Part shown: positions 12,512 through 14,442 of the stretch, one piece after another | Position numbering within the stretch: position 1 is the stretch's first letter | How the letters are laid out: every line of letters begins with the position of its first letter | From: Acidimicrobiia bacterium | GTDB taxonomy: Bacteria > Actinomycetota > Acidimicrobiia > Spongiisociales > ZC4RG35 | Assembly (NCBI GenBank): GCA_012270885.1 | Contig: JAAXHN010000032.1 | Coordinates: forward strand, 28,688-92,687 | Length of the DNA: 64,000 nucleotides | Reading direction: 5' to 3' | Made by a program: the position numbers and the translations under genes | Notes under the pieces: generated by a model | Told to the model about the DNA's origin: nothing | What the model saw: the letters and a program-made list of their open reading frames with translations, nothing else | The model's database searches: none

Positions 12512-12865
12512 TTAACCCCAGAAGATGAAGGTGGGGTCGCGTTCTACCTCTGCGATCAGTTGTTCGATCGAAGGTGTCGCCTCTGCAAGGTCGTACTCGC
12601 GGAACCTCAGGTTGCTGTCACTCCAATACAACGACCATTCTCCGCGCACCTTGGTGTAGCGAAAGCGGCAGATCGGGTCGCGAGTCCACTCGGGTCCCAT
12701 GTCATCACTCCACGGCGGTCGGCACTCCAGAACCGTAATCGTACGGGGAGTAAGGTCGATCTCGAATCGGATCAACCCCTGGGCTCCGGCAGGCAAAGCA
12801 GCGTTCCGTCGGTCTATCCACCGACGCACCCGCATCAGGTCACGATCCGGAATCACACCTCGCAT
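12512..12865 (-). CDS. DUF3024-family protein (function unknown)
   Basis: 117 aa. The pattern ..ECRPPWSDDMGPEWTRDPICRFRYTKVRGEWSLYWSDSNLRFREY....LIAEVERDPTFIFWG matches my memory of the DUF3024 consensus (W-LYW-D-N...Y, terminal FWG). Family assignment is from memory only. Confidence 0.6.
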   Translation of the reverse strand: MRGVIPDRDLMRVRRWIDRRNAALPAGAQGLIRFEIDLTPRTITVLECRPPWSDDMGPEWTRDPICRFRYTKVRGEWSLYWSDSNLRFREYDLAEATPSIEQLIAEVERDPTFIFWG

Positions 12866-12936
12866 AGTAGATTCCCGAGGCGCACGGTCAACCAGAATGC
12901 CTATGCAGACAATCCTGAGCGTGTTTCGGTGATGGG

Positions 12937-14442
12937 TCAGGCGCCGTGGTAAAGGCGGTCGGGGTCAATCAACTCCACGTCGGACCGGCGGTTGGCGCCA
13001 CCGATTAGGGCGGGCGTGAAGCCATCCAAGGAGAAGAGCAGAAGCTTGAGGGTGGGGGAGGGAGAGACTCGGTCTCGGCCGGCCAGCAGTTGGGTGAGGC
13101 GGTCGAGGCGGGTCAGGTCGGAGATGTCGAGGCGGGAGGCCTTGGCTTCTCCCACAGCCTGGAGTGTCAGGTGGCGCCCCGGGCCGCCTTCCGGGGCGGC
13201 GGCGGCGATGTCCAGTTCGAAGGATTGGCGCCGGTTGGGGTCGTTGACCTGAACGCGGTGCGCGGTGCCGACCGGGCCGCCCAGGGTCTCCGGCGCCGCA
13301 TACCGGTTGACCCACTCACGACAGAGAAACTCGAAATGGGGACCCACGATCTGAGATCGGTAGGTGCGGGCCGAGGCGGACCAGACTTCCGAAGCCCTGC
13401 GTTGTTCCAGCATCGCCCGGTGGCGCCGGGTGATCAGATGGTGGAAGCGGACGATGGGGTCGGCAATCCGGTAGACGGGCCGCCGGGCAGTGAGCAGGTC
13501 GTCGTCCCGCACCACGAACCCGGCGGTGGTCATCACTTTGAGGTGATGAACGATGTCACCGGGGGCCCGACCCACCGCCGCGGCGATACGTCCCTGCGAG
13601 ATCGGACCCCGGGAGATGGCTTGCAACAGTGAGTAGTAGGGCGCCTCGGCGGTGATTCGGGGGTCCTCTCTGAGGAGGTACTCGTCCTCTCGGAACAGGG
13701 CGTGGGACGGATTGATCGCCGTGGAGGCAAGCCAGTCGCCCAGGTCGTCGGTGCGAAGGGGTGACCCGGCGGCGATGGTCAGGTCCTTGTATCCGGCGGC
13801 GCCCCCCACGATGGCGTCGACGGCGAATGCCACTTCCGGGTCGTCGATCCCCCAAAAGCCGCGGGCCTGACGGTAGTCGAAAGACGCCAGGGGCATGTCG
13901 AGCGTCGCCCGCCCCCGCATGGGAGAGGCGCCGCTGAGGATGGAGGTCATAACCGACATAGCCGATCCGCACACGATGACGGTAACCGGCGAGGTCCAGT
14001 CGCCACCCACACTCCCGGCGGTGGTCTCATCAATCAGGGCCTGGATGGTGGAGTCCAACTCGGGACTGGTGTGACGCAGGTAGGGATATTCGTCAAGCAC
14101 CAGCACTCCTGGTCCCCTCGGGGCTTGACCCAGCATGTTGACGGCGAAGGTCAAAGCGGCGGTCCAGTCGCCGAAGCGAAAGGGGGGCTCTCCGGGGTGG
14201 TGATGACTCAGAATGGCCGCGAACCTGTCCAGGGCCGTTCGTCGCTCCTCTTGGAGGGCGAGGTGGTATATCCCGCCCACCGCCTCCACCAACCCCCGCA
14301 GCAGGTGGCTCTTACCGAATCGACGCCTTCCATATACGATCCCCAACCTCAGCCGCGGTCCGGGTCCGGTGACGAAACCGGCCAGATCAGCCCATTCCAC
14401 ATCCCGGTTGTACACGTTGTGTGGCTTGTTTGCCGACATCAC
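12937..14442 (-). CDS. STAND/archaeal-ATPase-like P-loop NTPase with winged-helix and DUF234-like (possible PD-(D/E)xK) C-terminal domain
   Basis: Walker A GRRRFGKSHLL and Walker B VLVLDEYPYL. wHTH-like ISQGRIAAAVGRAPGDIVHHLKVMTTAGFVVRDD..RRPVYRIADPIVRFHH. The C-terminus has FELDIAAA ... LQAVGEAKAS (D ... E-x-K). Confidence 0.7.
   Translation of the reverse strand: MMSANKPHNVYNRDVEWADLAGFVTGPGPRLRLGIVYGRRRFGKSHLLRGLVEAVGGIYHLALQEERRTALDRFAAILSHHHPGEPPFRFGDWTAALTFAVNMLGQAPRGPGVLVLDEYPYLRHTSPELDSTIQALIDETTAGSVGGDWTSPVTVIVCGSAMSVMTSILSGASPMRGRATLDMPLASFDYRQARGFWGIDDPEVAFAVDAIVGGAAGYKDLTIAAGSPLRTDDLGDWLASTAINPSHALFREDEYLLREDPRITAEAPYYSLLQAISRGPISQGRIAAAVGRAPGDIVHHLKVMTTAGFVVRDDDLLTARRPVYRIADPIVRFHHLITRRHRAMLEQRRASEVWSASARTYRSQIVGPHFEFLCREWVNRYAAPETLGGPVGTAHRVQVNDPNRRQSFELDIAAAAPEGGPGRHLTLQAVGEAKASRLDISDLTRLDRLTQLLAGRDRVSPSPTLKLLLFSLDGFTPALIGGANRRSDVELIDPDRLYHGA

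Follow-up and report, generated by a model that had tools for sequence, protein, structure and literature searches.

Two genes on the minus strand of an Acidimicrobiia genome lie nested between a helicase gene and a methyltransferase gene of a defence island, and their position raises the question of whether they form one dedicated system or occupy the same site independently. We analysed the 64-kb stretch of contig JAAXHN010000032.1 that contains them (the window), for which a preliminary description had proposed that the two genes, encoding an ATPase with a winged helix and a nuclease-like C-terminus and a small DUF3024 protein, make up a two-gene defence system. Both open reading frames (ORFs) were found where that description had placed them, within 12512-14442. 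We give a probability of about 0.6 to the reading that these are two single-gene cassettes, independent of each other, in the hmaA-hmaB cargo bay of an Hma (helicase-methylase-ATPase) defence island, and not a dedicated pair.

Co-occurrence of the genes was examined in two sets of 80 loci, one centred on the ATPase with a single genome for each species and the other centred on DUF3024 in metagenomes, by searching the six-frame ORFs of all loci with profiles of both families. Four of the 80 ATPase loci had a DUF3024 gene no more than 6 kb from the ATPase. In three of these, L015, L016 and L017, with ATPases 95%, 79% and 78% identical to that of the window, the genes lie next to each other and in the same direction, as they do in the window. 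Adjacency was confined to ATPases that share 78% or more identity with the one in the window, which is a single narrow clade. In the fourth locus, L052 (ATPase 45% identical), the two genes converge across a pair of phosphoesterase genes, and DUF3024 sits behind an upstream gene of its own. Since DUF3024 in L052 is 69% identical to the window's and the ATPase only 45%, the two genes have no shared history there. Among the DUF3024-centred loci, 50 of which have at least 1.8 kb upstream and so have room for the ATPase, one contained it (L114), arranged as in L052.

Each gene is also kept without the other. An intact ATPase 84% identical to the window's occurs without DUF3024 in L001 and L014, where its neighbours are toxin-antitoxin genes, a SWIM/DUF6880 gene, an IS110 element and an hmaA remnant, and a 72%-identical relative lies beside hmaC fragments, likewise without DUF3024. 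The DUF3024 gene of L016 carries a frameshift and is missing one invariant Trp, while the ATPase next to it retains all of its motifs. Conversely, L007 carries a DUF3024 that is 81% identical to the window's within hmaA-hmaB cargo of ~14 kb that includes no ATPase. The two genes therefore do not co-occur across lineages in the manner of a two-gene system, and this rarity, together with the retention of either gene in the absence of the other, led us to reject both an obligate pair and a toxin-antitoxin relationship.

The site in which the genes lie is one known to take up cargo. HmaA, HmaB and HmaC are encoded together, in order and on the same strand, and each matches its PADLOC model, which identifies the surrounding module as Hma. 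Payne et al. found embedded genes in 931 of 1485 Hma systems (62.7%), and their 'guilt-by-embedding' approach yielded HEC and 145 PDC candidates that have since been added to PADLOC (bioRxiv 10.1101/2024.01.29.577857). The earlier suggestion that nesting inside a defence module marks defence cargo thus agrees with what Payne et al. described for Hma specifically. The nesting is thus already known, and PADLOC lists both families as single-gene candidates (PDC-S27-like and PDC-S43), which speaks against the two-gene proposal and makes the window locus a new instance of a known phenomenon. The statement that neither family has an assigned function is accurate as far as experiments go, and it overlooks that both had been catalogued. 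A further suggestion, in which the pair would stand in for an absent DUF3780-type component, is not supported: Hma consists of three genes, all of them present, and at E ≤ 10 DUF3024 resembles no other Pfam family. The window resembles the published Hma systems with embedded genes in its hmaA-hmaB-hmaC order, in the foreign genes between hma genes and in cargo that differs among close relatives (window, L015 and L007); it differs in that its hmaB is frameshifted and in that its cargo combination is not named in the accessible part of Payne et al.

The first cassette encodes the ATPase. Its longest ORF spans 12937-14442 and begins at GTG 14442 (501 aa); because ATG 14439 is preceded by the Shine-Dalgarno-like sequence GGGAGA and agrees with the 500-aa database entry P0001, the gene was taken to start at the ATG. 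Both this gene (807 homologues in a word-indexed search; G+C by codon position 0.68/0.50/0.80, a high-GC coding pattern) and DUF3024 (74 homologues in the same type of search; 0.60/0.50/0.68, also a coding pattern) are real genes and not chance ORFs. An AlphaFold model of the ATPase built with 52 homologues reached a predicted local distance difference test (pLDDT) score of 88.6. Its top PDB match was 2qen (E 5.5e-12, template modelling (TM) score 0.65 on the target), a Walker ATPase of family PF01637 from Pyrococcus abyssi, followed by Orc1/Cdc6 proteins and then by the NB-ARC modules of plant NLRs and Apaf-1. In sequence, the protein also gave a weak match to Pfam HTH_20. Residues 346-500 are modelled as helix-strand-strand-strand-helix-strand (H349-379, E394-400, E405-414, E424-433, H439-453, E458-470), with E370 in helix one (GPHFE), D410 in strand two (FELD) and E431-A-K433 in strand three (GEAK). 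This predicted topology fits the canonical PD-(D/E)xK layout and places the C-terminus, as a DUF234-like domain, in the PD-(D/E)xK nuclease superfamily, nuclease activity itself being a prediction.

Residue conservation supports this architecture. In an alignment of 81 sequences, comprising the window protein and one from each of 80 species down to 42% identity, K43, D116, E117, R177, E431 and K433 are invariant (81/81), E370 is present in 80/81 and D410 in 79/81. The model and these 81 sequences bear out the domain reading of the preliminary description (P-loop, winged helix, DUF234-like C-terminus with acidic and Lys residues), including the nuclease-type fold that it had singled out for checking.

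The ATPase is related to PDC-S27 and COG1672, the 'archaeal ATPase' family that combines PF01637 with DUF234. PADLOC PDC-S27 matched it with E 1e-15, residues 33-196 aligning to profile positions 25-184 of 474. Pfam DUF234 matched the C-termini of 4 of 20 relatives weakly (best E 0.0039) and was undetected in the window protein; DUF234/COG1672 is counted among the families of the PD-(D/E)xK superfamily (PMC3424549). Published descriptions of PDC-S27 give it an ATPase joined to a PD-(D/E)xK domain and list it as awaiting validation. The window protein shares with this family the single-gene format, the N-terminal Walker ATPase, the 2qen fold and the PD-(D/E)xK-type C-terminus; it differs in belonging to an actinobacterial subfamily with a partial hidden Markov model (HMM) match and an undetected DUF234. 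Haloarchaeal plasmid genes annotated as 'ATP-binding protein' gave full-length tblastn alignments to the ATPase (92-96% coverage, about 27% identity), which agrees with the reported abundance of PDC-S27 in Archaea (PMC12988326; bioRxiv 10.1101/2025.11.08.687337). A PDB sequence search with a profile of the ATPase C-terminus returned nothing useful, and pattern scans of IMG/VR for the ATPase and for DUF3024 confirmed no relatives.

Two other groups of ATPase-nuclease proteins invite comparison. Avs/AVAST and other STAND NTPases may work in a similar way, as they join an NTPase switch to a PD-(D/E)xK effector and the window ATPase has NB-ARC-like fold matches. However, the window protein has no C-terminal repeat sensor, carries a winged helix in the sensor's place, ends in its nuclease domain and is only 500 aa long, so that it is not a member of STAND/Avs. 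PDC-S01 (AAA_14 + DUF4143) likewise unites an ATPase and a PD-(D/E)xK domain in a single gene, but both its ATPase and its nuclease belong to other families. Under the two-cassette reading, the first cassette encodes a stand-alone protein with an Orc1/Cdc6-like AAA+ ATPase, a winged helix and a PD-(D/E)xK nuclease domain, whose winged helix would bind DNA. ATP binding and hydrolysis through Walker A, Walker B and Arg177 would power a conformational or oligomeric switch, and this switch would license the C-terminal nuclease (E370, D410, E431, K433) to cut DNA, probably invading DNA.

The second cassette encodes DUF3024. The longer ORF of 117 aa runs from ATG 12865 (12512-12865); homologues start at GTG 12856 and L015, the closest relative, has ATT in place of the upstream ATG, so the start is probably GTG 12856. 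Assignment to Pfam PF11225 was confirmed with 79.8 bits against a cut-off of 24.9 over profile positions 10-112 of 112. At the level of the HMM, PADLOC PDC-S43 matched with E 2.9e-16 over positions 32-115 of 115. The protein has the same length as these families and is likewise a small stand-alone protein, with no notable difference. A profile search of 1.84 billion representatives placed 1852 clusters in the family, mostly of 110-120 aa.

In the DUF3024 model (pLDDT 88.3), an antiparallel sheet of five strands is preceded by one helix at the N-terminus and followed by one at the C-terminus, and the invariant or near-invariant residues are mainly Trp, Arg and Tyr, with a few acidic ones. Foldseek found nothing similar to this fold in the PDB or BFVD at E ≤ 1e-3. 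The top match, a weak one, was to XisI-like 2nlv (probability 0.85, E 0.07, TM 0.35-0.38), and Pfam gave no XisI signal. In cyanobacterial XisH/XisI a PD-(D/E)xK-fold protein is followed by a small alpha+beta partner, as the ATPase is by DUF3024 here, but the fold match is weak and has no counterpart in sequence, which makes the likeness a lead only. PDB sequence searches with DUF3024 and three of its partner proteins gave nothing useful, and tblastn of DUF3024 against phage records found no match. In the literature the family is mentioned only in a gene list, from the immunity region of prophage 933W.

The neighbours of DUF3024 across its loci show a directional pattern. Across the 80 metagenome loci, called with a codon-position-aware gene caller whose calls there are crude, a co-directional gene lay within 120 bp upstream in 44/76 (20 of them overlapping) versus downstream in 16/72 (p=1e-5); after dereplication the asymmetry was 25/47 versus 14/45 (p=0.04). 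The genes upstream include AbiEii, the PIN-like DUF5615 (5 loci), PIN, Mrr_cat, DUF2357+PDDEXK_7, Tpt1, HsdM, a PDC-S02-like gene and a NERD-like gene at the end of a type I restriction-modification (RM) operon. Fusions of DUF3024 to a HepT RNase and to PRiA4_ORF3 were also found. Where real gene calls were available, three settings were seen: DUF3024 closes a type I RM operon, in overlap with a gene of 197 aa; it is flanked by HipA and AbiE; or it stands by itself next to recBCD. It is common on plasmids of Rhodococcus and Mycobacterium, and on actinobacterial plasmids it lies near recombinases and RES toxin-antitoxin genes.

These settings hint at a promiscuous small partner at the 3' end of unrelated nuclease and toxin genes, which would modulate or guard them, possibly as XisI does with XisH, although we regard this as unlikely. 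Its range may take in PD-(D/E)xK enzymes, PIN-like and HepT RNases, AbiEii and, here, the ATPase-nuclease. The DUF433-DUF5615 and AbiEi-AbiEii pairs are already complete ahead of DUF3024, so that DUF3024 is an add-on to them and no antitoxin there; a role as stand-in antitoxin for DUF5615 or AbiEii was rejected on the same ground, the cognate DUF433 and AbiEi-like genes being present. As a separate observation, DUF3024 forms the C-terminal domain of several longer proteins (P0213, P0284, P0239, P0260 and L175 3350-4333), and in several fusions, including Rhodococcus opacus WP_005249359, an N-terminal region of ~220 aa has no family assignment.

Transcription signals were predicted from the sequence. 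TTGACC-16-TACTAT, which lies between the ATPase and DUF3024, is the only sigma-70-like match in 12300-15200, and a TAC[TC]AT hexamer is found 6-7 nt upstream of the DUF3024 GTG in all four pair-carrying loci while the rest of the spacer diverges. Leaderless transcripts are common in Actinobacteria, and DUF3024 probably has a promoter of its own that yields a leaderless mRNA; the protein would act without needing the ATPase. The divergent ATPase and hmaB genes are separated by 296 bp, and the imperfect inverted repeat in the AT-rich patch of this region, upstream of the ATPase start, may be an operator. The ATPase was also considered as a divergently transcribed regulator of hmaBC, a role that was rejected when the arrangement proved not to be kept in L015 or L017. 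Coordinates are collected in Table 1.

Table 1. Features of the two cassettes and of the host Hma genes (window coordinates)
Feature	Position	Strand	Remarks
DUF3024 gene	12512-12856	-	114 aa from conserved GTG 12856
Promoter-like element TTGACC-16-TACTAT	12864-12891	-	Between ATPase and DUF3024; predicted
ATPase-wHTH-nuclease gene	12937-14439	-	500 aa from ATG 14439; stop 12937-12939
PD-(D/E)xK-like domain of ATPase	12940-13404	-	E370, D410, E431-x-K433
Winged helix of ATPase	about 13465-13647	-	ArsR-like, residues 271-331 (NCBIfam, PDB)
Walker B of ATPase (VLVLDEY)	14089-14109	-	
Walker A of ATPase (GRRRFGKS)	14308-14331	-	
Imperfect inverted repeat, 13 nt (TATAACTCGATTT / AAATGGCGTTATA)	14469-14499	.	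AT-rich patch upstream of ATPase start
hmaA	8927-12433	+	Helicase (SNF2/DEAD) ending in NOV_C; host gene on the upstream side of the cargo bay; PADLOC HmaA 1366 bits
hmaB	14736-17517	+	DUF1156-type adenine methylase in two frames; PADLOC HmaB 877 bits
hmaC	17521-20844	+	DUF499 ATPase; N-terminal Swt1-like HEPN domain; PADLOC HmaC 955 bits

Several observations weigh against two independent cassettes with a role in defence. The pair, with a spacer of 69-81 nt, is kept in two Hma positions, between hmaA and hmaB (window, L015) and downstream of hmaC (L016, L017), which suggests that it can move or persist as a unit. No terminator-like site was predicted between the two genes in a scan of 12300-15200, so they may be co-transcribed, and RNA run X24 had 0 reads on the locus. 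The ATPase scores 29.2 bits against Pfam ATPase_2 (PF01637), below the cut-off of 33.2; the PDC-S27 HMM covers only its N-terminal third; and one PDC-S27 representative expressed in E. coli B gave no protection against T4, T5 or T7 (PMC12881386). ATPase neighbourhoods over the 80 species are mixed, largely metabolic or unrelated and modestly defence-related only, and the host Hma system may be off because its hmaB is frameshifted. The co-directional arrangement with a short spacer in four loci and two contexts, and the lack of a predicted terminator, would fit an obligate, clade-specific defence or toxin-antitoxin-like system, with a nuclease effector and DUF3024 as its neutraliser or activator, the form given here to the two-gene proposal of the preliminary description. 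We nevertheless consider such a system very improbable, because the ATPase is without DUF3024 in 76/80 species and DUF3024 without the ATPase in 79/80 loci, because the two genes have diverged discordantly in L052/L114, and because an ATPase that stays intact where DUF3024 is absent (L014/L001) or broken (L016) is incompatible with an essential antitoxin.

A looser association, in which DUF3024 is a promiscuous 3' accessory of varied effectors (sensor, modulator or immunity partner) and here serves an ATPase that can also work alone, is a weaker and unlikely reading. The excess of co-directional upstream genes, the nuclease and toxin identity of many of these partners, the two fusions and the XisI-like match all point towards it, the genetic partner of XisI being the PD-(D/E)xK protein XisH. 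Yet ~40% of DUF3024 genes lack an upstream partner that runs in the same direction, the toxin-antitoxin operons ahead of it are complete on their own, the XisI TM scores are low, the asymmetry rests on crude metagenome gene calls and weakens on dereplication, and in the window clade DUF3024 has a promoter signal of its own. It is also quite improbable, in our view, that neither gene is anti-phage, the ATPase being a housekeeping, regulatory or mobile-element DNA-binding ATP switch and DUF3024 a mobile passenger (for example in addiction or anti-defence), both of which merely accumulated at a hotspot prone to recombination. The largely metabolic or unrelated neighbours of the ATPase, the unprotective PDC-S27 representative and the plasmid and prophage 933W settings of DUF3024 are compatible with this explanation. 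Against it, each of the two families was picked up independently as genes nested within BREX, DISARM or type I RM systems, and the nuclease motif of the ATPase is strictly conserved. No recurrent neighbour of the ATPase of any kind was found in the 80 species loci, as would be expected of a gene that acts by itself; the commonest neighbour family, at 7/137 neighbouring proteins, is PDC-S01, itself an ATPase-nuclease candidate. The ATPases of the window clade are repeatedly in or beside Hma, near toxin-antitoxin genes, DarTG, AbiE and GmrSD. Two single-gene cassettes, each a defence candidate in its own right, therefore remain our preferred reading.

The state of the host system was examined in the same window. 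The PADLOC HmaB match is confined to 15082-17517 (profile positions 147-958), and the HmaB N-terminus lies in a different frame, from ATG 14736, so that not all three hma genes are intact. A +1 frameshift separates the two frames; it falls at a G11 tract without interruptions (15120-15130), within the DPFCGGG S-adenosylmethionine-binding motif. This tract is the sole homopolymer of at least 9 bases in the 64 kb, G10 in its place would put hmaB back in frame, and relatives encode the same glycines through interrupted codons. Contigs from three public runs end at the tract and one independent contig crosses it with 11 G; three 2026 DNA runs, searched for variation in tract length, had 0 reads on the locus. 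The tract could be a phase-variable methylase switch, the mark of an inactivated Hma or a homopolymer sequencing error.

The Hma island is bounded by dnaE (4105-7782) and mscS/thyX, and its G+C is a little below that of its flanks. Homologues that carry names indicate sponge-associated Acidimicrobiia. In HmaC, the Swt1-like HEPN domain occupies residues 11-117, ahead of the DUF499 ATPase, and the PADLOC HmaC profile begins only at residue 163; the HEPN_Swt1+DUF499 combination was also seen, as fragments, in L003. The cargo of relatives varies. L015 has two extra genes between hmaB and the ATPase (1736-5823, minus strand), encoding a 1203-aa DUF4062-TPR-PIN protein of the PIN-TPR-GreABC type and a 159-aa protein that has no Pfam match, and neither gene matched the PADLOC models tested. 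The cargo of L007 (1-16318) is an unusually large embedded defence collection, with DarT-Macro (DarTG), an IS3 transposase, SWIM/DUF6880, AbiEi-like + AbiEii, DUF3024, HipA, GmrSD_N and Fic. Beyond the island, a ThyX homologue (23046-24683, minus strand) has 545 aa, of which the Thy1 domain takes up only residues 313-502 behind a long N-terminal region without Pfam assignment, and relatives of 541-549 aa are present in L001 and L017. The stretch at 54000-64000 has a G+C of 0.58-0.60 versus 0.64-0.68 in the 30 kb before it, and may be a further acquired segment.

The locus adds a documented case of Hma as a cargo bay whose content shifts between close relatives, and it supplies a clear negative: adjacency alone is no ground for merging two candidates into one 'system'. 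For the abundant, unvalidated ATPase-nuclease family, the analysis names the residues to test, namely K43, D116/E117, R177, E370, D410, E431 and K433. For DUF3024, with about 1850 representative clusters, it yields a confidently predicted fold that has no known structural relative in the PDB or BFVD and a suggestive tendency to sit behind nuclease and toxin genes. A partner role for DUF3024 is thus a low-probability side lead, but the more interesting one.

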